The position numbers were made by a program, and so were the translations under genes. The notes under the pieces are model-generated. The model did not search any database. It saw nothing but the letters and a program-made list of their open reading frames with translations, and was not told where the DNA came from. A DNA stretch of 64,000 nucleotides from an uncultured Phycisphaerales bacterium (lineage in GTDB: Bacteria; Planctomycetota; Phycisphaerae; Tepidisphaerales; Tepidisphaeraceae): positions 224,001 through 288,000 of the forward strand of contig CAVWVQ010000005.1 of assembly GCA_963758525.1 (NCBI GenBank), written 5' to 3'. Shown piece after piece: positions 7,344-64,000 of this stretch; the first letter of the stretch is position 1, and each line of letters starts with the position of its first letter.

Positions 7344-10010
7344 ATGAAGCTTCTCATTCGTCTCACGCTCGCATCGCTCAACGCCCGCCGGACCCGGGCG
7401 GTGCTCACCATCCTTGCGGTTGCGCTTTCCGTGAGCCTGGTGGTCGCGGTCACGGGAGGGTATGCATCGGCCCGGTCGGCGTTCCGAGTCTATCTGGATC
7501 GATATCTCGGGCCGATTGATATCCTCATCAGCAAGCAGAACGATCCGCGCGGCACAATCTCCGAAGACGTCGGGAACGCGCTCCGCGGCGACCCGCGCGT
7601 ACGCGGTCTGGCTGCGCGTCTGGAACTGCAGAACGGGCTGCTCAAAGACGTCGATGGGAAAGAGGAAGCCGCGAGAGTGGCGTCGATCGTCGGCATGGAT
7701 TGGCCCGGCGATCTGCTCGCAAAGAACCTGCAGATGGTTGACGGAAAATGGTTCGACGGAACGGATGGTGACTTTGTGGTGGTGGATCAGAGCACCGCCG
7801 AGCAATTGAAAGTCTCACCCGGCCAGACGCTGGTCCTGCCTGGACTCGGCAAGCGATTGACGCTGACCGTTGTCGGGGTCGTACATAAGCCGGCAATCAT
7901 CGTCGAGGGCCGGCCGGTGTTGTATGTGCCGCTCAGGACGCTGCAGCGATTCACAAACCTGCCCGGCCGGGTGAGCAGGGTGCTGGTGGCACTGGCGCGG
8001 GGAGTCGACGTCAACGCCTTTGAAAGCGAATGGACGCCGAGGCTGGAGAAAATCAGCCCGGGCGTCCGAATGAAGTCGTCGGCGGAGACGAAGAAGCAGC
8101 TCGACAGTCAGTTGGAGCTGCTCGATCTGCTCAGCTACGCCGGCGGCACCGTCTCGATGCTGACCGCGACGTTTATCGTCTTCTCCGCGCTCAGCATGGG
8201 AGTTCTCGAGCGCCAGCGCACCCTCGCGATGCTCCGGGCGGTCGGCGCGCTCAAGTCGCACGTCGCTGCTCTGGTGCTGATCGAGGGGATTCTGCTGGCG
8301 GGGGCCGGCGCGTTGATCGGCGTGCCGCTCGGACTGCTGTTCGTTTTCATTTTGACGATGACCTTCGGCGACTTTTTCGTCACGGGCGTCGTCCTCAGTT
8401 GGGGAGGAATCTTCCTGGGAGTTGGGGGATCGCTCGCGGCGGCGCTGCTGGCGAGCCTTCTGCCGGCATGGACCGCGTCCCGCGTGAGTCCGCTGGACGC
8501 GATGACCCCGCAGTCTTCTCCGCCGCGAGCGCACAGCTGGATCGCCTGCGCGGCAGCGGGCGCGATCCTCGCATCGGTCGATCCGTTCATCTTCTTTGGT
8601 CCGCTTCCGCGGATTGTGGCTGCACTGGGCGTGCAGAACCCTTTGGCCACGACGCAGACGATTCGCTTTATCGCGCATTTCGCGCTGGGTTTGCCAACGC
8701 TGCTGACGGGCCTGTTTCTCATGTCGCCGGCAATCGTCTGGCTTGTCGAACGACTTGTCGGGCGGCTCGTGGCCGGGATCTTCGGGGTGCGCTTCGCGAT
8801 GCTGCGCCAGCAACTCAGCAGCGGGATCTGGCGGGCCGCGGGAACCTGCACGGCAATGATGGTCGGCCTTGCCACGCTGATCGTGCTGCAGATTCAGGGA
8901 AACAGCGCGCTAGGCGGCTGGAAACTTCCCGACAAGTTTCCCGACATCTTCATCGCCACCAACATGCTTGGAGGCATTCCGATGGAAGAGGTCGCGAAGC
9001 TCGACGACATCGATGGTATCAAGCGCGGGCAAGTGATGCCGATTGCGATCGCAACGCCGGGCCTGGCGCACGGATTCTTCGGGCTTGCCGAGGCGATGAT
9101 CATGCCGGATGCGACCATGTTTTTCGGGATCGATCCGGATCGCGGATTCAATCTGATGGCCCTGGACTTCCGGGAAGGGAACGCCCAGGACGCGCAACGC
9201 CAGCTCAAGCAGGGCCGGCATCTGCTGGTGACGGAGGAATTTCGCAAGATCAAGGGACTGCACGTAGGCAACACGCTCATGCTCAGGACAGATCATGGGC
9301 CGCAGGACTACACCATCGCCGGCGTGATCTGGTCGCCGGGAATCGACGTGCTGGTCAGCGTGTATGACATGGGCAATGCGATGGACCAGCGCACCGCCGC
9401 CAGTGTCTTCGGCACGCTGACCGACGCGAAGCGCGACTTTGGCGTCGATCGTTATTCACTTGTCGTGGCAAATCTGCAATATGGGGCTGACAAGGCCGAC
9501 GTGCTGAAGAAAGTGCAGAAGGAATTGAAGCTGCAGGGTCTTCGCGCCGGCGACGTGCGGCCGCTGAAGTACAAGATTGAAACCGAAGCGCGTAAGATCA
9601 TCCTGATGATCAGCTCCGTTGCCTTTGCGGCAATGGGCATCGCTTCGCTGGGCGTGACGAACACGATCATGGCCAGCGTTCGCAGCCGGCGCTGGCAGTT
9701 TGGAATTCTCCGCAGCGTCGGCGTCACCCGCGGAGCGCTGTTGCGGCTGGTGATGGCTGAAGCGGCGCTGCTGGGAATCGTGGCATGCGCCATGGGCGTT
9801 GGCGCCGGTTTGCTGATGGGAATGGACGCGCATGCGCTCTCGGCGGACGTCACCGGCTACGACCCCCCAGTCAGCAGGCCTTGGGGCATTATCCTGATTG
9901 GAGTGGCCGCCGTGCTGGTCATCTCGCTGGCTGCCAGCGTGGGCCCCGCGGTGCAGGTTGCCGTCGCCGAGCCCCTGACATTGCTGCAGGCAGGAAGGTC
10001 CTCCGCGTAG
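7344..10010 (+). CDS. FtsX/MacB-type ABC transporter permease (duplicated)
   Basis: Two FtsX-like repeats (ERQRTLAMLRAVG; RRWQFGILRSVG), periplasmic loops, follows the ATPase. Confidence 0.88.
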   Translation: MKLLIRLTLASLNARRTRAVLTILAVALSVSLVVAVTGGYASARSAFRVYLDRYLGPIDILISKQNDPRGTISEDVGNALRGDPRVRGLAARLELQNGLLKDVDGKEEAARVASIVGMDWPGDLLAKNLQMVDGKWFDGTDGDFVVVDQSTAEQLKVSPGQTLVLPGLGKRLTLTVVGVVHKPAIIVEGRPVLYVPLRTLQRFTNLPGRVSRVLVALARGVDVNAFESEWTPRLEKISPGVRMKSSAETKKQLDSQLELLDLLSYAGGTVSMLTATFIVFSALSMGVLERQRTLAMLRAVGALKSHVAALVLIEGILLAGAGALIGVPLGLLFVFILTMTFGDFFVTGVVLSWGGIFLGVGGSLAAALLASLLPAWTASRVSPLDAMTPQSSPPRAHSWIACAAAGAILASVDPFIFFGPLPRIVAALGVQNPLATTQTIRFIAHFALGLPTLLTGLFLMSPAIVWLVERLVGRLVAGIFGVRFAMLRQQLSSGIWRAAGTCTAMMVGLATLIVLQIQGNSALGGWKLPDKFPDIFIATNMLGGIPMEEVAKLDDIDGIKRGQVMPIAIATPGLAHGFFGLAEAMIMPDATMFFGIDPDRGFNLMALDFREGNAQDAQRQLKQGRHLLVTEEFRKIKGLHVGNTLMLRTDHGPQDYTIAGVIWSPGIDVLVSVYDMGNAMDQRTAASVFGTLTDAKRDFGVDRYSLVVANLQYGADKADVLKKVQKELKLQGLRAGDVRPLKYKIETEARKIILMISSVAFAAMGIASLGVTNTIMASVRSRRWQFGILRSVGVTRGALLRLVMAEAALLGIVACAMGVGAGLLMGMDAHALSADVTGYDPPVSRPWGIILIGVAAVLVISLAASVGPAVQVAVAEPLTLLQAGRSSA

Positions 10011-10060
10011 CTGCGGGTGAACGCCTCTGGAATGAATTTGTTGAATGCTTGCGTAACATA

Positions 10061-11242
10061 ATGCGTATCGGAAATCACCACATTGACGCCCCTTTCTGCC
10101 AGGCTGGCCTGGCCGGGTACAGCGACCGCGCCATGCGGCTTGTCGCGAGACGGCGCGGATGTCCGTATGCGGTCACCGAGGCGTTGCTCGATGTGATTCT
10201 CCTCAACGGCGGAGAAGGGCTTCGGAGATCCATCGACATCAACGACGAAGATCATCCCATCGCCGGTCAGATCATGGGGAGCGAGCCGGAGACGATGGCG
10301 CGGGCCGCCGTCATTGTCTGGGAGGCTGGATACGATGTGATCGATCTCAATTTCGCCTGTCCGGTGAAGAAGATCAAAAACAAAGCGCGTGGCGGTCATA
10401 TGCTGATGGACGTGCCGCGGGCCCTGGCCATCCTTCGCGCCGTCCGCGATGCGCTGCCGGCAGACGCGCCGACGACCGTGAAGCTTCGCCGCGGCTTCGA
10501 TGATTCCCGCGAATCCGAAGAGCGCTTCCTTCAGATTCTCGATGCGGCCTGGGACCTTGGATATGCCGCCGTCTGCGTGCACGGGCGAACCGTCGAGCAG
10601 AAGTACGTGGGCCCGAGCCGTTGGTCATTTCTCACGGACCTCAAGCAACTCTATCCGCGCCGCACGATTCTCGGCAGCGGCGACGTCTTCACCGCTGAGG
10701 ACGCGGTGCGCATGCTTCGCGAGACGAAGGTCGACGGCGCATGGATCGCGCACGGCGCGATCGGCAATCCGTGGATCTTTCAGCAGGCACGCGAGCTGAT
10801 TCGATCAGATCAACCGGCGCCTGCGCGTGAGTCGTTGGTCGATGACGCGTGTGATCCGCGTCATTTCCCCTCCCCCGGTGTACCAGGGGAAGGGGAAAGC
10901 ACATCCGCTGCGGAAGCTGCCTCGGTGATGTCACGCACGTTCGATCCCCCGTCACTCCTCGCCCAGCGTGACGCGCTGCAGGAACATTTTCAGATCGCGA
11001 TGGAAATCCACGGCGAGCAGCTTGCCGGACGGCGGATGCGGAAGATGGGGATCAAGTACAGCCGATTTCATCCCCTTGCGGGAGACGTGAAAGCCGCGTT
11101 TATCGATGTGAAGAGCCTCCGCGACTGGACCGCGGTTCTCGATCGTTTTTATGCCGGCGATGGTCCGGGCGTCTGGCCTGATCCCCGGTCCGCTGACGAA
11201 GTTAACGCTGGCGCGGGCATGCAGACTTGCGAGGTGGCCTGA
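10061..11242 (+). CDS. dus: tRNA-dihydrouridine synthase
   Basis: IDLNFACPVKK, VKLRRG, VHGRT, GSGDV, GAIGNPWIF. Confidence 0.88.
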   Translation: MRIGNHHIDAPFCQAGLAGYSDRAMRLVARRRGCPYAVTEALLDVILLNGGEGLRRSIDINDEDHPIAGQIMGSEPETMARAAVIVWEAGYDVIDLNFACPVKKIKNKARGGHMLMDVPRALAILRAVRDALPADAPTTVKLRRGFDDSRESEERFLQILDAAWDLGYAAVCVHGRTVEQKYVGPSRWSFLTDLKQLYPRRTILGSGDVFTAEDAVRMLRETKVDGAWIAHGAIGNPWIFQQARELIRSDQPAPARESLVDDACDPRHFPSPGVPGEGESTSAAEAASVMSRTFDPPSLLAQRDALQEHFQIAMEIHGEQLAGRRMRKMGIKYSRFHPLAGDVKAAFIDVKSLRDWTAVLDRFYAGDGPGVWPDPRSADEVNAGAGMQTCEVA

Positions 11243-50900: not shown

Positions 50901-51809
50901 CTACACAGTGGCATCTTTCATTTCCGGCGCCACAGAATTCGCGGAGGCTCCTGTGCCCCTCGCAAAGCCAGCCAGTTCGGTCATGTTCTGCATGACATGC
51001 AAGCTCTTTGAGGGACGGAGGGCCAATGATGTGACTGCACTTCCGCCGAGGACAAAGAGCGTTCCCGACGCCGCAAGTTGTTCGGCCAGCGCGTTCACCT
51101 TATCGCGCGCTTTGGTCCCCTCAACGGTCGCCTTTACCGCCAACCACGCGATGCGGGCTTTATGTTCGCGAGCGGCGACAGCCAGCACTTCCAGCGGGGT
51201 ATCCGGCCCAAAATTCATCTCCCGGAATCCCGCCTCCGCAAGGACGGTGCCCGCCATCATGGATGGCAGAATGTAAGGGTCTCCCTGCGGCGCTGCACCC
51301 AGGGCAATTGGCGCCTCTTCGGCCGGCTGTCCCAACATTTGCCGAAGCATTCCCAACGCTTGCAGGCACATCGTTGTGGCCCGATGTTCGACGAGAACGG
51401 CACGCGGGTCATTCGGCCACAGTTCCCCAATCCGCGTCATGGCGCCCCGAATGGGACCATCACAAATCGCTGCCACGCTCAGGCCGTTCAAGAAGAGACT
51501 GGCGACGCAACCGTTTGCCGAAAGAGCATTCCCGGAGCAAAGGGCCTCGAAGAGATTCTCTTCCAGAGCCTGTGAACCGAGCATCTTCCCTGCAGCGGCA
51601 GGGAGTTTGGGCATCCCCAGCAGTTCCGGTCGAACGATTGCTGACCCCGATTCCCGCACGAACCGAATCGCCTCCGGCAGTGCAATCCGTCGATGCCCGC
51701 CGGCGGTTTTGGCAGTGCGAATGGCGCCGGTGTTGGTCCATCGACGCACGGAGCTTTCGCTGGCACCGATCGCCTCGGCAAATTCAGTCGTTGTAAGCAG
51801 TTTTTCCAT
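50901..51809 (-). CDS. MerR/excisionase-HTH + cobalamin-binding-like regulator (CarH/LitR-like)
   Basis: SESSVRRW, TAGGHRRI HTH; IGELW-x9-EH; Rossmann-like C-terminus GFREMNFGPDTP. Confidence 0.8.
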   Translation of the reverse strand: MEKLLTTTEFAEAIGASESSVRRWTNTGAIRTAKTAGGHRRIALPEAIRFVRESGSAIVRPELLGMPKLPAAAGKMLGSQALEENLFEALCSGNALSANGCVASLFLNGLSVAAICDGPIRGAMTRIGELWPNDPRAVLVEHRATTMCLQALGMLRQMLGQPAEEAPIALGAAPQGDPYILPSMMAGTVLAEAGFREMNFGPDTPLEVLAVAAREHKARIAWLAVKATVEGTKARDKVNALAEQLAASGTLFVLGGSAVTSLALRPSKSLHVMQNMTELAGFARGTGASANSVAPEMKDATV

Positions 51810-53844: not shown

Positions 53845-56363
53845 TCAGACGGCCGGCAAAGCGACGGGCGGATTCGGCACCACCGGCGTTTTTACAATCG
53901 ACGTGGCGTTGGTTGGATCGAAGATTCGATACGCGAGCAGCTTGATGCGGTCGTTGATCAGGAACCACACCAGGGCATAGCCCCATACAAACGCTGCCCA
54001 ACCCCAGCCGAGCGGCGTCATAAAGGCTCCGTATACCGCGATCAAGGTTGCAATGATTTGCGTTCCCACAACGGCGATCCAGAGAATCGTCGCGGGCCTG
54101 ATAGACCAGAACGGGCCGCGCGTGCGAGTCAGAAATATCGTCAGGTGGCCAGCCACGGACAGTTTCAAATACATCAAAGTTTGAATGTGTGGACGGTCGA
54201 GATGAAAGACGCGTTCACCGAGGTAAAAAAGCCCGAACGCGGACACGACGCCGATGACGCCCAGCACGGTCGAAACACCGAGCACCAGGCGCATGTTCCA
54301 TGCCTCAGGTTTGTCCTTGTAATGCACGTTGTCATACGCAATTGAAAGGATCGCTCCGTCATTGAGCGACGCCAGCATGACAATCATCACGGCGGTCAGC
54401 GGATAGAAGTTGAACACGAGGATTGCCAGCGTCATAAAGAACAGCACGCGCAGGGTTTCGGCGATGCGGTAAATGGCATAGCTGTTCATTCTCTGGAAGA
54501 TTCGACGGCTTTCCTTGATCGCGTCGATGATGACCGACAGACCGTCGGTAAGAAGGACGATGGATGCCGCGGCGCGGGCTGCGTCAGTTGCTCCGGAGAC
54601 GGCAATGCCGCAGTCCGCTTTTTTCAAAGCCGGTGCATCGTTCACGCCGTCGCCGGTCATTCCGACGATATGGCCGCGCTGCTGGAGAATGTCGACAATG
54701 TGGAACTTGTGCTCTGGAAATACCTGGGCGAAGCCGTCCGCCTTCTCGATGAGTTTCGTTTCCTCGGAAGTTTCCTGTTTTTGAGAATCACCAAGACCGC
54801 CGGCGTCAAGGATATTGGAACCGAGTCCCAGCTCTTTTGACATTTCCCGCGCGATGGCGAGAGAGTCGCCGGTCACCATCTTAATGCTCACCCCCATTTG
54901 CCGAGCGCTGGCGATGGTGGCTTTCGCCGACTCGCGCGGCGGGTCGGACAATGGCAGGATGCCCAGGAACCGCCACTTGCCTTTCTCATCTGCGCGGGCG
55001 ACGCCCAGTGATCGGAACCCACGAGCAGCGAAGTCGTTGACGGCTTTTTCAACGGCAGTCTTGATCTCGGCGGCGTTTGCCGACATTTGCAAAATCACCT
55101 GCGGGGCGCCCTTGGCCACGTCGAATTGCTTTCCGTCACTACCCTTTACTGTGGCTTGGGTGCGTTTGTGTACAGGGTCGAACGGTTGAAAATGGACGAC
55201 TTCAAAGCCTTTCAACGTCTTGTCGTCTTTCATTCCGCCCAAGACCGCCAGATCAATGGTGTCCTTATCCTCCGCGCGTGAAGCAAGAGCGCCGGCAAGG
55301 ATCACCTGGTCGGCGGGGATGTTATCGACGGTGAATGCCTCGCCCAGCGTGAGCTTGTTTTGAGTCAGCGTTCCCGTTTTATCCGAGCAAAGCACGTCCG
55401 CGCCGGCCAGTTCTTCAATCGCTACCAGGCGGCTGACAATCGCCTTCTTCTTGGCCAGCAGGCGAGCCCCGACGGCCATGGTGACGGACAACACCGTGGG
55501 CATCGCGACGGGAATGGCGGCCACGGTCAGCACCAGCGCGAACTGCAACGTGGTGAGAATTCGGTCCCCGCGATAGATCGCTACAGCGATAATGATCGCC
55601 ACCAAAGCTACGGCGAGGATGACCAGGTAATTGCCGATCTTCATGACCGCGCGCTGAAAGTGACTGACTGTCTGTACCCCTCCCACTAATTGAGCGGTCC
55701 TGCCGAAATACGTGTGCGTTCCGGTAGCGTAAACCAGGGCATCTATTTCACCGCGACGCATGATCGAGCCTGAAAACACTGCATCACCTGATTGATGCGT
55801 TGCCGGCAACGATTCTCCCGTCAGAGCGGACTGGTCGACGGCGATTTCGTCGCCCGCCAGCAAGCGTGCATCGGCGGGCACAATGTCGCCTAGTCGCAAT
55901 CGAATGACATCGCCCGGAACAAGCTCGCGCGCGGGGGCGTGATCCATTTCCCATCCCGCTTGACCTTTGCCGCAACGGCCAGTTCTTTTTTCAAGGCCGC
56001 GATCGCATTGCCCGCCTGCCGTTCTTCCCAGAATCCGACCACGCCGTTGGCGAGAAGCAAAAGGAGAATGATGAAAAAATCCGGCCAGTGGCGGACGATG
56101 CCCGACAAGGCCACGGCCGTTTCGATCATCCAAGGGATCGGACCCCAGAAATAAGACAGAAATTTCAGAAAGAGATTTGTCTTCTTTTCCGCGATTTCGT
56201 TGGGGCCGTATTGCGCCAGCCGCTTCTTGGCCTCAACGTCAGTGAGACCGTCCGGGGACGAACTCAACCGTTTTGCAACATCAGCAATTGGAAGGGTCTT
56301 TAGATCATCCTTGGCATCGGGATGCGGGTGAGCAGCCTTAGATTGAGTGGGGTCGGAAGACAT
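53845..56363 (-). CDS. P3A-type plasma-membrane H+-ATPase (frameshift ~55935)
   Basis: WGPIPWMIE, TGES, PVAMP, CSDKTGTLT, KGAPQ, TGDGVNDAPAL, LNDG. Confidence 0.92.
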
Positions 56364-57780: not shown

Positions 57781-59073
57781 TCAGCCTCGCGCGGGAGTCG
57801 CGCCGTTGTCGCCCGAAAAGACGCAGCGCCCCGCGAGCGTCACGCGGCTCACTGTGGTAGCGGGGTGATTGGGATCGATTGGCAGCAGCGAGCGTATGGC
57901 CGCGTCGGCGGACATGTGCGGCGACAAGCCCGAGGACGCGACCTCGATGAAGGACATCGGAAAGCCTTGTTCGAGGCTGCCGAAGCTGGTCCCCATATCC
58001 AGCAGATCAGCTGGAGCGCGCGTCGATCGGTAGAGCGCTTCGGAGGCCGTGCCGCGATCGGATCTGCCGGCGTGAACGTCGATAAACCGGCGCATCTCTG
58101 CAAGCATCGAAACCGTCGGCGAAGCTCCAACGTCGGTGGCGATCGCGTAGGGCACGTTCCATCGCGCCACCTCATCCAGCGACATGATGCCCGATCCGAG
58201 CAGCGTGTTGGATGTGGGGCAGTGCGCGATCACCGAGCCGGAATCTCGTGCAATTCGCCACTCATCGTCTGTCATATGAATGCAGTGAGCCAGAATGCAG
58301 CGGTGATCCAGCAGGCCGTCTGCGCGGTAGATGTCTGTATAATTCGCGCAGCCCGGATATAGCACGTTTTCCACAAGCGTTTTTTCAGACGATTGCTCAT
58401 TCAGATGCGTCTGGGTTCGCAAGCCATATTCGCCGGCAAGCGCCGATGCGCGCGGCGCAGGGGGGAGTTCACCGCCACCGCGAAGCGATCGGTGACGATC
58501 AGGCGGCGGCCATACCGAGTTGCCAGACGTTTGATGTCCGCCTCGAGCATCGGCTCGTCGGCGCAGATCCTGCGGGCAATTCTGGTTCATCAGCACCAGA
58601 CCGACGCTCCAGGATTCGGGAAGCATCGAGAGTGCAACCTCCGTCGCCACCGCCGAGGGTGTCATGTAGGCCGATCCGCCAACAACGCCGTGCGAGAGCG
58701 TGTCGGCGAGAAATTCGCGGACGACTTGTTCGGCATACGCTTCCGTCGCGCATTTTGCCTCTGCCGGAAAGACGTTGCGGCGCAGGCCGGCGAGCAGCTT
58801 GCCCTCTTTCGCGTCATTGGCGATTCCCTCCGTGAAGCGACCGCGGATCGGGTGTTGCGGAATATGAATATGAATGTCCAGCAGCGGCGGAAGCATTACC
58901 CCATCGCTGAGGCGCGTCGGCTGATTCGACGAACGGTTGTGAAATTCTTCAAACGAGCCGGCGAACCGGAGCACCTGGCCGGCATCGGCAGCCAGAATCC
59001 CGTCGAAATGGAAGGTGACCGATCCGTCTGCCCGCGGAATCAGCAGCGGTCCGCGCACAATTTGTTCAAGCAC
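57781..59073 (-). CDS. guaD: Guanine deaminase-like amidohydrolase (two compensating frameshifts ~58450-58560)
   Basis: DIHIHIPQ, QTHLNE, AHCIH, HCPTSN, ATDVG; last gene of the purine operon. Confidence 0.75.
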   Translation of the reverse strand: MLEQIVRGPLLIPRADGSVTFHFDGILAADAGQVLRFAGSFEEFHNRSSNQPTRLSDGVMLPPLLDIHIHIPQHPIRGRFTEGIANDAKEGKLLAGLRRNVFPAEAKCATEAYAEQVVREFLADTLSHGVVGGSAYMTPSAVATEVALSMLPESWSVGLVLMNQNCPQDLRRRADARGGHQTSGNSVWPPPDRHRSLRGGGELPPAPRASALAGEYGLRTQTHLNEQSSEKTLVENVLYPGCANYTDIYRADGLLDHRCILAHCIHMTDDEWRIARDSGSVIAHCPTSNTLLGSGIMSLDEVARWNVPYAIATDVGASPTVSMLAEMRRFIDVHAGRSDRGTASEALYRSTRAPADLLDMGTSFGSLEQGFPMSFIEVASSGLSPHMSADAAIRSLLPIDPNHPATTVSRVTLAGRCVFSGDNGATPARG

Positions 59074-60415
59074 CGGCCGGCCCCCTTGCAGGTTTGATCA
59101 GGCGGCCGCGAAAATCACTGGCGACGGCGCCCTTAAGAGACACAGTCCTGCCCCGCACGATCGTCCGCTCGACCATTCCCCTGAAGGCCCGGCCGACGTA
59201 CGGGCTCAGTTGATGGCGATCCAGGAGCATCTCCTTCGTCAGCGTATAGTTTCCCGATAAATCAACCAGAGCTAAATCCGCATCAAAACCCTCCGCGATC
59301 TTTCCCTTCCCCGGCAGCAGGAAGCGCTTGGCGGTGGTGGTTGCGGCAAGCCTGGCGACTTGCTCGGGTGCAATGGCCGGCTGGCGCGTGAGGAGAGAGG
59401 CCAGCGTGGATTGCACGCCGGAGACACCTCCCCAGGCAGTAAAGAAGTTGCCCGATTTCATCGCGGGGGGCGCGGGAGAGTGATCCGATCCGATCAGGTC
59501 GATCGTTCCATCGACCACCTTTTCCCAGAGCTGGTCGCCGTGCGGCGCGGCGCGGATCGGCGGCGCGCACTTGGCGGCGGGGCCGATGCGAACGACGTCT
59601 TCGTGCGTCAACATGAAATAGTGCGGGCAGGTTTCGATCGAAACATCCGCCACGCGTCGCCCCATGGCCGCCATTTCCACGCAATAGCGGTTGCTTACAT
59701 GGACGATGTGCAGTTTGCATCCAGTTGTGCTAGCCAGGAGGATCGCGCGCCCAATGGCGTCGGCCTCGGCGACCGGCTCGCGGGTGAAGACCCAGTCCTT
59801 CGCCGACAGCTCGGGCAACAGGCTTTGCATCCATTTGGTTTTGCCGGCGACGAGCTCCTGGTTTTCGGCGTGAACCGCGACCGGCAATCCCAGCTTCGCC
59901 GCCAGTTGCATGCCACGCTCCAGTGTCCAATCGTCAGCCCGTTGGAAATCATCGATGCCGCTGTCACACATGAATGCCTTGAACCCGACGACGCCGCGTT
60001 CGGCAAGCTCCTCCAGTCGATCGAGATTGCCGGGTGTCAGACCGCCCCAGAGCGCGAAATCGGTGCGGCTCGAAGCTTCCGCCGCCTGACGCTTGAGATC
60101 AAAACTCGCGCCGTCGAGGGTCGGGGGAGAGCTGTTGAGGGGCATGTCGAAAAAGCACGTTCCGCCGCCCGCCGCCAGAGCCGCCGAGCCGGTGGCGAAC
60201 CCCTCCCAATCGGTTCGGCCTGGCTCATTAAAATGGACGTGCGGGTCGATCGCGCCCGGGAAAATATGGAGCCCTCGCGCGTCGATCTCTTCCCTTGCAG
60301 GCCCAGATGGATCACCGATCTCAATAAGTTTTCCGTCGATGATCCCCAGTGACAGCGGGCGATGAGCGTCGACGCCAACGATCAGACCATTACGAATGAG
60401 CAGGTCGAATTTCAT
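59066..60415 (-). CDS. allB: Allantoinase
   Basis: HVHFNEPGRTDWEG, DMPLNS, GFKAF, HAE, ETCPHY, SDHSP. Confidence 0.93.
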   Translation of the reverse strand: MKFDLLIRNGLIVGVDAHRPLSLGIIDGKLIEIGDPSGPAREEIDARGLHIFPGAIDPHVHFNEPGRTDWEGFATGSAALAAGGGTCFFDMPLNSSPPTLDGASFDLKRQAAEASSRTDFALWGGLTPGNLDRLEELAERGVVGFKAFMCDSGIDDFQRADDWTLERGMQLAAKLGLPVAVHAENQELVAGKTKWMQSLLPELSAKDWVFTREPVAEADAIGRAILLASTTGCKLHIVHVSNRYCVEMAAMGRRVADVSIETCPHYFMLTHEDVVRIGPAAKCAPPIRAAPHGDQLWEKVVDGTIDLIGSDHSPAPPAMKSGNFFTAWGGVSGVQSTLASLLTRQPAIAPEQVARLAATTTAKRFLLPGKGKIAEGFDADLALVDLSGNYTLTKEMLLDRHQLSPYVGRAFRGMVERTIVRGRTVSLKGAVASDFRGRLIKPARGPAGA

Positions 60416-60433: not shown

Positions 60434-60787
60434 TCAGCTGCCTCGATACGTCGAATAGGCCCAGGGAGAAACCAGCAACGGCACATGATAGCCGGCCAAC
60501 GCATCGTCAATTCGAAAGAGCACAGGCACGACATCGAGAAATCTCTTCGCATCGCTCGAGCCGACCGATGCAAAATAATCGCCGACGTGAAACAGCAACC
60601 GGTACTGCCCCGCGGCAAAAAGGTCGCCACTGAGCATTGGTTCATCAGTGCGGCCATCCTGGTTGGTAATTCGATCTGAAATCGGAATCTTCTTTCCGCT
60701 CTCCAATCGGTGCAGTTCGATGCGCACCCCAGCGGCGGGTTTGCCATGTGTCGTGTCGAGCACGTGCGTCGTCAGTTTGCCGCTCAT
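60434..60787 (-). CDS. uraH: 5-hydroxyisourate hydrolase
   Basis: LTTHVLD...YHVPLL...YRGS. Confidence 0.95.
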   Translation of the reverse strand: MSGKLTTHVLDTTHGKPAAGVRIELHRLESGKKIPISDRITNQDGRTDEPMLSGDLFAAGQYRLLFHVGDYFASVGSSDAKRFLDVVPVLFRIDDALAGYHVPLLVSPWAYSTYRGS

Positions 60788-61641
60788 GATTCCTCCCGCT
60801 CGAGATGCCCGACGATTTTCCCCGATGGCTCATCCGTCGTCACATAAACATCATTGTTAAATTCCAGACCGAATGGTTTGAAATTGAACGGCACGCGATG
60901 CTTATTCGGCATGCGCAGGGTGATCCCCGTAATTGACGGTTCAACGGCGAGAGCGGCTTCTCCCATCGCAAACAAGGTTTGTTGAACCGCGTCACTCTTG
61001 TGCGTCGCGAACGTCTCCAGCATCGCGGTGCGAATCTTTGAAAACGCGCGGCTGAAATCAACATCGCGGCCGGCGAAGACCCACTCCGCGGAAACCTCCG
61101 TCGCCAGAATCCGGTCCGTGGTTTCCGGAAGTGTCGTGTATTGATCCCGCACAAAGCCGGTGAACGCCGAATCGGTTGTCTTAAGCACCAGCAGATCGCT
61201 CAGGCCGCCGTGAATTTCCACGCGATTCTCGTTCCGGTCGACGGCGACGAAGGCCTTGCGCAGCTCGCTCCCGGCGGATTCAAACGCGGTGGGATGTGAA
61301 ATCCCATCAACAGTGATCCGTTGCCACCGCGATTGATCGATATTGATTCGCGCCGCGCTGGCCTGCGGGTACGTCTCCACAAAGTGATCGGCGAGGCGGA
61401 GCGCGAACGATTCGGGGCTCTCCATCGAATGCTCTTTCGCCAGCAGGTAGACGGTGTTTTTGATCGAGTCGGTGGCGATGACGTTGGAATTGTCGCCGTG
61501 CGTGTAGGATCGCTCGAATGAGCCGAGCAAGATCACGCTCACGTTCATCTCCACCAGCTCGTGGCGGTCGGCGAGCCGGTGAACCCTCGTGACCCGGACG
61601 GATGACTTGCCATATTGTTGATGGAGTAATTTCGCGGGCAC
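60784..61641 (-). CDS. pucL: Cofactor-independent urate oxidase
   Basis: YGK, ATDSIKNTV, VLKTTDSAF, TTLPE, SDAVQQTL, MPNKH. Confidence 0.93.
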   Translation of the reverse strand: MPAKLLHQQYGKSSVRVTRVHRLADRHELVEMNVSVILLGSFERSYTHGDNSNVIATDSIKNTVYLLAKEHSMESPESFALRLADHFVETYPQASAARINIDQSRWQRITVDGISHPTAFESAGSELRKAFVAVDRNENRVEIHGGLSDLLVLKTTDSAFTGFVRDQYTTLPETTDRILATEVSAEWVFAGRDVDFSRAFSKIRTAMLETFATHKSDAVQQTLFAMGEAALAVEPSITGITLRMPNKHRVPFNFKPFGLEFNNDVYVTTDEPSGKIVGHLEREES

Positions 61642-61644
61642 GGT

Positions 61645-62157
61645 TCAATCCTCGCTGATCACGTCGGCCATGCGGAGCCTGGCGATCTGGTAAATCTCAT
61701 GGAGCGCCGCCGCGATTTCGGCATCGCGATCATTCCGCAATCGCGCCGGAAACGCCGCGAGAATCGCATCTTTACGGTTTTGCCTCGCGCAGATGACAAA
61801 CGGAAATCCAAAACGATCGCGATAGGCGGTGTTATACCGGTCAAACTCGGCGGCTTCAGCGGGAGTCAGCTCGGCCAATCCCGCCGCCGCCTGCTCCGTC
61901 GCGCTTTGCGGGGTTAACCGACCCTCGCGCGCCAGCCGCCCGACGAGATCCGGGTGAGCAGCGATCAATGCGAGCTGTTGCTCTTCCGTCGAATCTTCGA
62001 CGATCCTGCGCATCACCTCATGCAGATGCCCCAGCGATGAAAACGGGCGCGCAGACCATGCCCGTTCCGCAATCCACGGCGAGTGCTCGAAGAACGGACC
62101 ACATACCGTCACAAAGCTCTCGCGATCCGCAAGATTCAGCCGGCTGAGCGCCATCAT
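61645..62157 (-). CDS. uraD: OHCU decarboxylase
   Basis: FEHSPWIA, AHPDL, SATEQ, FGFPFVIC, IARLR. Confidence 0.93.
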   Translation of the reverse strand: MMALSRLNLADRESFVTVCGPFFEHSPWIAERAWSARPFSSLGHLHEVMRRIVEDSTEEQQLALIAAHPDLVGRLAREGRLTPQSATEQAAAGLAELTPAEAAEFDRYNTAYRDRFGFPFVICARQNRKDAILAAFPARLRNDRDAEIAAALHEIYQIARLRMADVISED

Positions 62158-63383
62158 GATTCGGTTACCATCTTTGCCAGAACATTTGCGGCCGCAGTAA
62201 TGTCTTCGATTCGGCTGAACTCCTCGGGGTTATGACTGATGCCATCTTTGCTCGCAACGAAGAGCATGGCCGTGGGAAGCAGCGGGGCGAGAATGGCGGC
62301 ATCGTGCAGGGCTCCGCTGATTGTCGTTGGAATTTCGCCACCGGCCGCACGCTGCAGCGCGGCGCAGACATCGGGGTTCATCTGGATCGGTGGCTGGTCC
62401 TCGGTGGTCATGAAGTTGAATTCCGTACCCCGGGGATTGAAGCAGACGAACTGCTCGAGTTCCTGATGAAACTGCGCCAACTTCTCCGAACTGGGACTGC
62501 GCACATCGACGGTAAACCGGACGGTGCCCGGGATGACGTTGACGGCGTTCGGCTGGCAGTCGATTTTCCCGACCGTTGCGACAATGTCCGGTCCAAGTTT
62601 TCGAGCGAGATCGTCGACTTCGCAGATCACCCTGGCGGCGAAGACGAGAGGATCGCGCCGGAAGCGCATCGGTGTGCTGCCGGCGTGGTTCGGAGCGCTT
62701 ATGAATTTCGCCTTATACTGCTTGCGGCCGGCAATGGCGGTGACCACCGCCAGGGGGACGCCGCCGGCCCACATCGCCGGTCCCTGCTCGGCATGAATTT
62801 CGATCAGGCCGTGATAGCGGGCGGGATCGAGACGATCGGCCGGCAGATTCTGTCGGCGCACGCCATCGGCGGCGCCAGCCTCGAAATATGTCTGCCCGTC
62901 GCGATTGCGGAACTGGTGGAAGAATGCGTCGTCACCGGTTCCCTCAAACGACACGCTGCGATTGACCCACAGACGACTGCCGATCATGCCGACGCCGAAT
63001 GTCGTTCCCTCCTCCTCGGCAAAGACGATCAATTCCAACGGCAGAACCTTGCCGGCGGCGCAAGCGGAGCGCAACACTTCCAGCGGACAGGTGACACCGA
63101 TCACCCCGTCGAATTTTCCGCCGGTCGGCACGCTATCGATGTGAGAGCCGCTCAGCCACACTTTCCGGTCCCAATCGATCGAGGCATGGCGGGCATGCAC
63201 ATTTCCCGCGGCGTCGATTCGCACTTTGCATTCGGCCGCCTCTGCCTGGGCAATCACATAATCGCGCGCCTGCCGCCAGGCTGGCGAGAAGGTGGGGCGG
63301 CTGCAGCCGACATCCGGTGTCGATTCATTGAAACCCGCAATGGTTTCAATGTCTTGCGAAATTCGCTCGGAGCTGATCGGCAT
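62154..63383 (-). CDS. allC: Allantoate amidohydrolase (M20 Zn hydrolase)
   Basis: GSHIDSV, FDG, EEEG, EIHAEQG, NHAG, GALHDA, SHNPEE; operon context. Confidence 0.8.
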   Translation of the reverse strand: MPISSERISQDIETIAGFNESTPDVGCSRPTFSPAWRQARDYVIAQAEAAECKVRIDAAGNVHARHASIDWDRKVWLSGSHIDSVPTGGKFDGVIGVTCPLEVLRSACAAGKVLPLELIVFAEEEGTTFGVGMIGSRLWVNRSVSFEGTGDDAFFHQFRNRDGQTYFEAGAADGVRRQNLPADRLDPARYHGLIEIHAEQGPAMWAGGVPLAVVTAIAGRKQYKAKFISAPNHAGSTPMRFRRDPLVFAARVICEVDDLARKLGPDIVATVGKIDCQPNAVNVIPGTVRFTVDVRSPSSEKLAQFHQELEQFVCFNPRGTEFNFMTTEDQPPIQMNPDVCAALQRAAGGEIPTTISGALHDAAILAPLLPTAMLFVASKDGISHNPEEFSRIEDITAAANVLAKMVTES

Positions 63384-63396
63384 GGCGCGGGTTGTC

Positions 63397-64000
63397 CTAC
63401 TTTCCAAAATCCCTTCTCCATGCAGTTCCCGTCTTCTCCATTTCGCTCTCGGCGGCGGTCCTTCGCAGACGGTGGAGCATCGGCATCCCAAGGTTCCATT
63501 CCTGCATCCAGTCTCGCGCGAAAACGCCGCTCTCCGTTTCCGTGAGGATTCGGCGGATTTCCGCTTCGTTAATCACGCGGGGGCCGCGCGTGCGAACGGC
63601 AAATTCGCAGGTTCGGCTGCAGCCCTTGGTCAGGTATTCTTCGATGCCTTTTTCGTCCATCACGTCGATGACGCTGCGCAGGCTGCGAATGGCTTTGGCA
63701 TAGGCGAAGCTCGGGGGATAGCCATTTTCAACCATCACGTTGAAGCAGGCGCGCATGAGGTGAATGGCGCCGCCGTACAGAATCTGCTCTTCGAAATTGT
63801 CCCCCTCGGTTTCGTGCTGAAAGCTCATTTCGACAACGCCGGCGCGGGTGCTGCCGACCGCTTTGGAGATCGCCAGAACGATGTCTCTGGCATCGCCGGT
63901 GGCATCCTGATCGACGCTCACGCATCCGTAGACCCCTTCCCCTTTCTGGTATTTTGCACGCACAAATGCGCCGGGAGCGTTGGGAACGTACAGGACGACA
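63397..64000 (-). CDS. Ketol-acid reductoisomerase-like paralog (5'-partial)
   Basis: IlvC-like PG..VR..Y..G.GV, QDATG, RAGV, ETEGD.FEEQ, GY.P..AY, SGVFARDW, with divergent active-site residues. Confidence 0.8.
   Translation of the reverse strand, partial: VVLYVPNAPGAFVRAKYQKGEGVYGCVSVDQDATGDARDIVLAISKAVGSTRAGVVEMSFQHETEGDNFEEQILYGGAIHLMRACFNVMVENGYPPSFAYAKAIRSLRSVIDVMDEKGIEEYLTKGCSRTCEFAVRTRGPRVINEAEIRRILTETESGVFARDWMQEWNLGMPMLHRLRRTAAESEMEKTGTAWRRDFGK

Follow-up and report, generated by a model that had tools for sequence, protein, structure and literature searches.

The gene at the end of the DNA stretch analysed here (the window, 64,000 nucleotides from an uncultured Phycisphaerales bacterium) resembles ketol-acid reductoisomerase (KARI) and lies in an operon for purine catabolism. 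The reading we favour, and hold to be fairly probable, is that it encodes an NAD(P)+-dependent (S)-ureidoglycolate dehydrogenase, which replaces AllD and yields oxalurate. A known reaction slot has thus likely been filled by a rebuilt KARI, and other proteins of this fold, ApnO and BurG, provide a precedent for such repurposing. An earlier note on this DNA had suggested that a KARI paralog was recruited to purine catabolism, a proposal strongly supported by the second KARI found in 51 of 51 carrier genomes, the invariant substitutions in the active site and the linkage to purine genes. Of the two functions considered in that note, the second, oxidation of ureidoglycolate in place of AllD, is the candidate that best fits the slot between allE and allC and the failure to find AllD (0/75 carriers) and ureidoglycolate amidohydrolase (UAH, 0/68).

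The minus-strand reading frame of the KARI-like gene is open past the window edge at 63999 and its stop codon occupies 63399-63397, with a gap of exactly 13 nt to the allC ATG at 63383. This spacing and the co-orientation with purine genes had been noted before and are confirmed. The portion within the window gives matches to PF01450 (106 bits) and PF07991 (66 bits), and the gene starts at L001 8379 (G000:C5:288379), around 380 nt upstream of the edge. Beyond position 64000 the genes found are allE and then ade, so that the co-oriented series reads ade, allE, KARI-like gene, allC, uraD, pucL, uraH, allB, guaD:

L001 about 9162-11182, outside the window: ade, split, further upstream of allE
L001 8406-9146, outside the window: allE, directly upstream of the KARI-like gene (TIGR03214, 255 bits against a cut-off of 200)
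L001 8001-8379, beyond the window: 5' part of the KARI-like gene, with the Rossmann motif, the R...SxS loop and a one-base frameshift near L001 8071
63397..64000, minus strand: last 200 codons (3' part) of the KARI-like gene, a candidate for (S)-ureidoglycolate dehydrogenase, covering the end of KARI_N and all of the KARI_C knot domain
62154..63383, minus strand: allC-like M20 amidohydrolase (NF006771, 331 bits, cut-off 399; TIGR01879 passed)
61645..62157, minus strand: uraD, OHCU decarboxylase (TIGR03164, 195 bits against 96)
60784..61641, minus strand: pucL, uricase (TIGR03383, 336 bits against 168)
60434..60787, minus strand: uraH, HIU hydrolase (TIGR02962, 131 bits against 87)
59066..60415, minus strand: allB, allantoinase (TIGR03178, 492 bits against 358)
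57781..59073, minus strand: guaD-like guanine deaminase (NF006679, 200 bits, below the cut-off of 351), matching in two stretches and probably frameshifted internally

One base is missing from the assembly near L001 8071, which puts the 5' part of the KARI-like gene in another frame. This is probably an assembly error, since ade is also split, most of the relatives with 82-93% identity have an intact gene (326-329 aa), and the extra base is present in a near-identical 252-nt short-read contig (three other differences, depth 3.3), which possibly derives from the source sample and is then not independent. Apparent frameshifts were also seen in a P-type ATPase gene (window 53845-56363, minus strand), in guaD (57781-59073, minus strand) and in ade (L001:9162-11182), which suggests an error-prone long-read assembly.

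Every reaction as far as (S)-ureidoglycolate is covered by genes of the operon, but none beyond it can be recognised, which leaves a hole in the pathway. The M20 enzyme of the window is nearer to allantoate amidohydrolase (1Z2L, 194 bits) than to UAH (4PXE, 147 bits), and three fates are known for ureidoglycolate, through AllD, UAH or the lyase AllA (PMC3793230). The arrangement is conserved in 75 GTDB loci from Phycisphaerae, Pirellulales, Spirochaetota and Rhodothermales, where allE is directly upstream of the KARI-like gene in 73 (one contig edge, one absent) and allC directly downstream in 68 (six edges, one absent), with uraD in 63, pucL in 61, uraH in 59 and allB in 57. No further ureide gene is shared across these neighbourhoods, and no gcl, ilv gene or known oxalurate-consuming gene was found in the clade A operons defined below. 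In E. coli it is allD that belongs to the same trio, in the allECD operon (PMC11326118). Among minor features, allC is apparently fused to uraD in many loci (L035, L038, L039, L044, L144 and others, L144 being backed by family matches), and uraD to pucL in L060 and L084. The operon of this genome does not have the adjacent xdhAB found in many relatives, and divergent from its ade there is a gene of the beta-hydroxyacid dehydrogenase family (L001:10841-11776, plus strand, outside the window; TIGR01505, 140 bits, cut-off 341), at a position often occupied by xdhC in relatives.

The best 120 of 1102 matches in a search for relatives were all 82-93% identical, and a second search seeded with a divergent fragment gave a second group, whose named members come from Anaerolineae. 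The resulting alignment has 465 near-full-length sequences: 184 of clade A, to which the window gene belongs, 153 of clade B, 127 canonical-like and one outlier. Residues are numbered as in the S. aureus KARI; the numbers were anchored through the spacing of motifs in this genome's canonical ilvC, with no direct alignment. The motifs VPN, ETEGDNFEEQ and AYAKAIRS, previously read from the sequence, were all found in the frame quoted for them, within these four stretches:

63970..63987, minus strand: VPNAPG, with Asn at the K130 equivalent (N in 337/337 family rows, K in 127/127 controls)
63784..63813, minus strand: ETEGDNFEEQ, with D190 and E194 kept, L191N, G193E and one residue deleted after E194-Q
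63673..63705, minus strand: AYAKAIRSLRS, with E226K, H229R, E230S, K232R and L233S; Mg(II) ligands lost, hydrophobic pocket now polar
63604..63621, minus strand: CSRTCE, with S251 kept and N252R

A separate canonical ilvC, proposed earlier as a check, is present on contig C3 of the same genome; its product is 38-43% identical to that of the KARI-like gene and its motifs read APKGPG, ETDLFGEQ and AYFECVHEVK. All 337 family rows carry K130N, L191N, G193E, E226K, H229R, E230S, K232R, L233S/T/C, N252R and the one-residue deletion after E194-Q, and the 127 canonical-like controls invariably have K130, L191, G193, E226, E230 and L233. D82, D190, E194 and S251 are conserved throughout all grouped rows, family and controls alike. 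Class I KARIs bind Mg(I) through the equivalents of D190 and E194, and Mg(II) through those of D190, E226 and E230 (PMC5940873; PMC8615647). They also have a hydrophobic pocket lined by L233, L237 and S249, and inhibitors form bonds to S251 (PMC12202844). The Mg(I) ligands D190 and E194 are therefore present in the 337 rows, with a geometry that may differ given G193E and the deletion, and the Mg(II) ligands E226 and E230 have become Lys and Ser in every one (Glu in 127/127 controls). With three new arginines (H229R, K232R, N252R) and changes at published Mg(II)-ligand and pocket residues, site II appears replaced by cations and the pocket turned polar.

Databases name members of the family 'ketol-acid reductoisomerase', and an intact relative passes TIGR00465 (293 bits, cut-off 226). 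The distribution of the family is patchy: 300 other sampled genomes of the window's phylum gave only canonical-type KARIs, at most 47% identical; 7 of 80 loci from a metagenome scan (2 of 64 parts) are family members (61-69% identical to the query, the remainder 37-47%); and plasmid and viral collections held only distant KARI matches. The clade B protein of locus L284 is 69% identical to the window fragment. The outlier, P0121, is 50% identical to the family and sister to both clades; it keeps K226 and R232 and has E130, V193, N229 and G230. In a quick tree built from 82 rows, whose long branches meet near the root, the two clades group together with an SH-aLRT of 99 and are separate from the canonical ilvCs. 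Purine linkage and the Lys/Ser substitutions thus hold across a separate clade, as the checks of neighbourhood and phylogeny suggested in the earlier note indicate.

The GxGxQG cofactor motif is found in 337/337 rows. In clade A (184 rows, 159 parsed) the cofactor loop reads R...SxS, with R in 158 and the final S in 158, whose Arg has disappeared in clade B, where an Asp stands at the end of the loop in 125 of 151 parsed rows; by the rules given in PMC5940873, clade A is predicted to be NADP-type and clade B NAD-type. A homodimer was predicted with an ipSAE of 0.91 (best control 0.00), contact agreement of at least 89% and pLDDT of at least 91. Of 30 solved pairs 20 attained the mark, as did 1 of 23 single chains. 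The 0.91 score shows likeness to solved KARI dimers only, and the predictor may simply be reproducing them. AlphaFold modelled the single chain poorly across the knot domain (mean pLDDT 66), as is to be expected when the partner is missing, and for this reason no geometry was taken from it. The best PDB and Foldseek matches are class I KARIs, and no PDB entry is nearer than true KARIs. IlvC of this class (PF07991 and PF01450; PDB 7Q03, 5E4R, 6AQJ) has the same two-domain fold and length (~330 aa) at 37-46% identity, and GxGxxG, D82, H107, D190, E194 and S251 are kept in the KARI-like family; the two differ in the Mg(II) site, K130 and the pocket, in the location within ureide operons and in the presence of a separate KARI in the genomes concerned.

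Gene content was profiled in 51 carrier genomes: the present one and those of 50 of the 75 loci, most of which were selected because their contigs were longer. Most carriers are incomplete metagenome-assembled genomes, so that absences mean not found, and kin genomes are not independent counts. AllD above cut-off was found in none of 75 carriers (0/70 plus 0/5 further genomes), and Ldh_2-family genes unlinked to the operon in 29/51, this genome included. No UAH orthologue was detected in 68 carriers, the best matches being 31-38% identical and mostly the carriers' AllC. PF04115 was matched in 7/51 with 27-43 bits, and the five proteins tested scored 15-34 bits on NCBIfam lyase models (cut-offs 160-282). 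Divergent AllD or AllA activity may exist elsewhere in carrier genomes. As a separate observation, the spirochaete carriers L107-L111 have remote AllA-fold proteins (27-43 bits to PF04115), often in multiple copies.

A comparison was also made starting from allE. In the order of the closest relative, 42 of 140 genomes matched allE, and in 41 of them (24 and 17 from two locus sets) the KARI-like gene is beside it. The exception, the planctomycete G461 (L256:566-3788), has allC-allE together with a second M20 enzyme, a plant-type UAH (480 bits to the Arabidopsis-type PDB 4PXE), and carries only a canonical-type KARI. The replacement of the KARI-like gene by UAH in G461, a single displacement event, places it at the ureidoglycolate step.

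The maintained NAD(P) site indicates redox chemistry and, together with the C2 geometry and the binding of IpOHA to the KARI site, favours a dehydrogenase. KARI's own product is (R) at C2, and a C2(R) geometry of the ApnO type becomes (S) once C3 is swapped for the ureido nitrogen. ApnO, of the KARI fold, oxidises a C2(R) hydroxy acid (PMC13753588), and (S)-ureidoglycolate is the isomer made by AllE and taken by AllD (PMC3527362). IpOHA, an N-substituted oxamate, binds the KARI site (PMC12202844); oxalurate is N-carbamoyl-oxamate. In the mechanism that we propose, the KARI-fold protein would oxidise the (S)-ureidoglycolate produced by AllE to oxalurate, having kept only the C2 hydride-transfer half of KARI chemistry. 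D190 and E194 would hold one metal or the C2-OH; Lys226, Arg229, Arg232, Arg252 and Ser251 would stand in for Mg(II) and bind the carboxylate, and the polar pocket of Asn130, Asn191 and Ser233 would take the ureido group. Clade A enzymes would use NADP+ and those of clade B NAD+. The loop of clade A counts against a dehydrogenase, the NADP type being more usual for reductases; AllD prefers NAD+ (PMC3527362).

The fate of oxalurate would differ between clades. In this genome no AllG, HpxZ, AtzE, carbamate kinase or TCase-2 (the transcarbamylase described below) was found as an oxalurate route, and oxalurate might be excreted or hydrolysed by some further enzyme. B. subtilis PucG also makes oxalurate without a known next step. 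Across carriers, HpxZ/AtzH was found in 0/51 and AllG in 9/51, all spirochaetes and unlinked; among five clade A genomes, AtzE above cut-off and a TCase-2 orthologue were each found in none and carbamate kinase in two. Given a genome with no known oxalurate-using gene, clade A would lose two nitrogens unless AllC or another amidase acts again. Spirochaete loci L266-L273 have FdrA-AllG-type modules beside NCS2 nucleobase permeases, xanthine-dehydrogenase-like genes, a thiolase-domain gene or carbamate kinase; these AllFGH-like modules are unlinked to the KARI-like gene and were seen without a background control, so we give them little weight.

The context of clade B comes from three loci only. 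That of G585 (L284) contains an ABC transporter, allB, a racemase-like gene, allE and a pseudo-ATCase (TCase-1; motifs STRT, HPTQ and HTLP), followed by the KARI-like gene, TCase-2, carbamate kinase (333 bits, cut-off 358), a flavoprotein and ETF. In L142 an OTC-type transcarbamylase, etfBA, a glycine-oxidase-like flavoprotein, the KARI-like gene and fixC precede a permease, allB, a racemase-like gene (by eye) and allantoicase, and neither allE nor allC is among the annotated genes of this 17-kb contig. In G725 (L286) the KARI-like gene stands at a contig end, in the company of carbamate kinase, racemase, allE and pseudo-ATCase genes; TCase-2 was not found in this fragmentary genome. In L147, a member without clade assignment, the KARI-like gene is followed by allE. 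Three routes therefore converge on (S)-ureidoglycolate as the shared metabolite: allC plus allE, a UGTCase-like enzyme plus allE (L284, L286) and allantoicase (L142).

TCase-2 is an OTC-type protein of the clade B gene cluster (L284:7852-8898 and L142:3551-4603, 65% identical), below every NCBIfam cut-off, and constitutes a candidate single-gene oxamate transcarbamylase. The oxamate transcarbamylase of E. coli is AllFGH, unrelated to the OTC family (PMC11326118). An AllG gene is present at another place in G585, so that oxalurate may be handled there by an enzyme other than TCase-2. In clade B, oxalurate would yield oxamate, carbamoyl phosphate and ATP through the neighbouring transcarbamylase and carbamate kinase, the simplest route being allantoate to ureidoglycine, ureidoglycolate, oxalurate and finally oxamate plus carbamoyl phosphate. 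The Rubrobacter UGTCase route (PMC4016543) shares allantoinase, a pseudo-ATCase with STRT, HPTQ and HTLP, and carbamate kinase with these loci. Beyond this shared set the clade B loci contain allE and the KARI-like gene, a glycine-oxidase-like flavoprotein with ETF, and another transcarbamylase, of the OTC type. One row of Table 1 in that paper shows the same pseudo-ATCase motifs, not necessarily the row of the assayed UGTCase. Tentatively, and with less confidence than for the reaction itself, we propose a KARI-derived family of ureidoglycolate dehydrogenases, with cations replacing one catalytic magnesium, together with a new allantoin fermentation in clade B, the anaerobe-type subclade, through UGTCase, AllE, the KARI-like enzyme, a single-gene OTC-family oxamate transcarbamylase and carbamate kinase, with two ATP per allantoin. 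If this holds, oxamate transcarbamylase, for which no genes other than allFGH of E. coli are known, would gain a second candidate, of classical fold.

Some of these data also fit a lyase-reductase, which would deprotonate the C2-OH of ureidoglycolate, expel urea with Lys226 as acid and use NAD(P)H to convert the glyoxylate still bound to it into glycolate. Such an enzyme would fill the same hole in the pathway, be consistent with the exclusion with UAH and AllA and with the NADP-type loop of clade A, and mirror the cleave-then-reduce logic of KARI. Carriers also seem short of glyoxylate sinks, with glyoxylate carboligase (Gcl) above cut-off in 0/51 (best 342 bits against 711) and malate synthase in 0/5 examined, and this genome has urease. 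Urease was nevertheless matched in only 12/51 carriers (10 above cut-off), and urea carboxylase in 0/5. TCase-2, which needs an N-carbamoyl substrate, and the carbamate kinase of clade B would be left without a substrate, and (S)-ureidoglycolate in the pose of the KARI product would aim its C2-H at the nicotinamide, favouring oxidation. We consider the lyase-reductase unlikely.

A plain reductase of glyoxylate (2-oxo acids), clearing what arises from spontaneous decay of ureidoglycolate or promiscuous AllC, is in our view improbable. The reductase activity of KARI takes various 2-keto acids (PMC5940873), and Gcl and malate synthase were not found (0/51 and 0/5); yet the glyoxylate-making UAH locus is precisely the one without the KARI-like gene, the wholesale, invariant rebuilding of the site would exceed the need, and the linkage to transcarbamylases is left unexplained.

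The flavoprotein of clade B (DAAO/ThiO-like, 59% identical between loci) and ETF alpha/beta, encoded in both long loci (L284:2695-6012 and L142:4780-7858, the latter also with fixC), possibly oxidise ureidoglycine or hydroxyglycine, and could point to another ureide-derived substrate for the KARI-like enzyme, for instance ureidoglycine or hydroxyglycine (to oxamate), perhaps acting with them. To this we assign a low probability: hydroxyglycine has no source in clade A, where UAH was not found, ureidoglycine is also sought by AllE, and the locus with allantoicase would produce no ureidoglycine.

The first option of the earlier note, reduction of tartronate semialdehyde or hydroxypyruvate to glycerate after Gcl, finds little room here. 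ApnO reduces hydroxypyruvate to glycerate in vitro (PMC13753588), and the beta-hydroxyacid dehydrogenase gene divergent from ade could be seen in the same light, but the divergent upstream gene is elsewhere mostly xdhC and tartronate semialdehyde is reduced at C3, not C2; with no clustered gcl and Gcl above cut-off in none of the 51 carriers, the Gcl pathway was rejected and glycerate formation is very improbable. That the gene encodes a second, ordinary KARI is hardly credible in spite of the database names and the TIGR00465 match, given the replacement of both Mg(II) glutamates, K130 and L233 in 337/337 rows, the lack of a clustered ilv gene and the second KARI in every carrier profiled.

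As a ureidoglycolate dehydrogenase, the KARI-like protein would catalyse the same reaction as AllD (TIGR03175; Ldh_2 family, PF02615) in the same slot with allC and allE. The folds are unrelated, and it has no Pfam or NCBIfam match to the sulfolactate-dehydrogenase-like Ldh_2 family; in AllD a His serves as base and an Arg binds the substrate (PMC3527362), and the enzyme prefers NAD+, unlike the NADP+ predicted from the clade A loop. The E. coli oxalurate genes allFGHK are adjacent to the AllD genes, and none adjoin the clade A gene. UAH (PDB 4PXE) and the lyase AllA/DAL3 (PMC3793230) act on the same metabolite but are non-homologous and non-redox, releasing glyoxylate with ammonia or urea. 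The KARI fold has been turned to other reactions before, in the D-apionate oxidoisomerase ApnO and in BurG (PDB 7PCC); NAD+-dependent oxidation at C2 is among them, and metal site I was retained while site II was altered. ApnO is around 15% identical to its structural homologues and has site II rebuilt with His/Zn; BurG keeps KARI residues including the E230 equivalent, in contrast to the Ser at 230 and the Lys/Ser/Arg site II of the present family (PMC13753588). Entries of the 7PCC type reach 163 bits, whereas true KARIs reach as much as 287.

Our literature search, which covered the main text of openly accessible papers, found no description of a KARI-like ureidoglycolate enzyme, and the word 'reductoisomerase' is absent from the main text of the Rubrobacter UGTCase paper (PMC4016543) and from a 2026 review on urate catabolism (PMC13751858). 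The conversion of ureidoglycolate to oxalurate is so far known only from the unrelated AllD. The gene offers a directly testable candidate for a step still missing from the recycling of purine nitrogen by uncultured environmental lineages (Phycisphaerae, Spirochaetia and Anaerolineae by record names), and its neighbours point to a candidate OTC-family oxamate transcarbamylase. Hundreds of proteins named 'ketol-acid reductoisomerase' probably act outside amino-acid synthesis, which would amount to a systematic misannotation, and the family may represent a natural experiment in which the redox half of KARI was split from the isomerase half.

Some other observations were made along the way. The planctomycete locus L274 (G349) combines an aerobic uricase operon with a ygfK-xdh-carbamate kinase-ygeY-ygeW anaerobic purine cluster. 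An environmental spirochaete genome has an AAC(6')-like acetyltransferase match, below cut-off, at L266:8006-9115. Finally, positions 50901-51809 of the window (minus strand) encode a regulator with a MerR-type HTH and a B12-binding domain, divergent from GTP cyclohydrolase I-like and fasciclin-like ORFs (both by eye).
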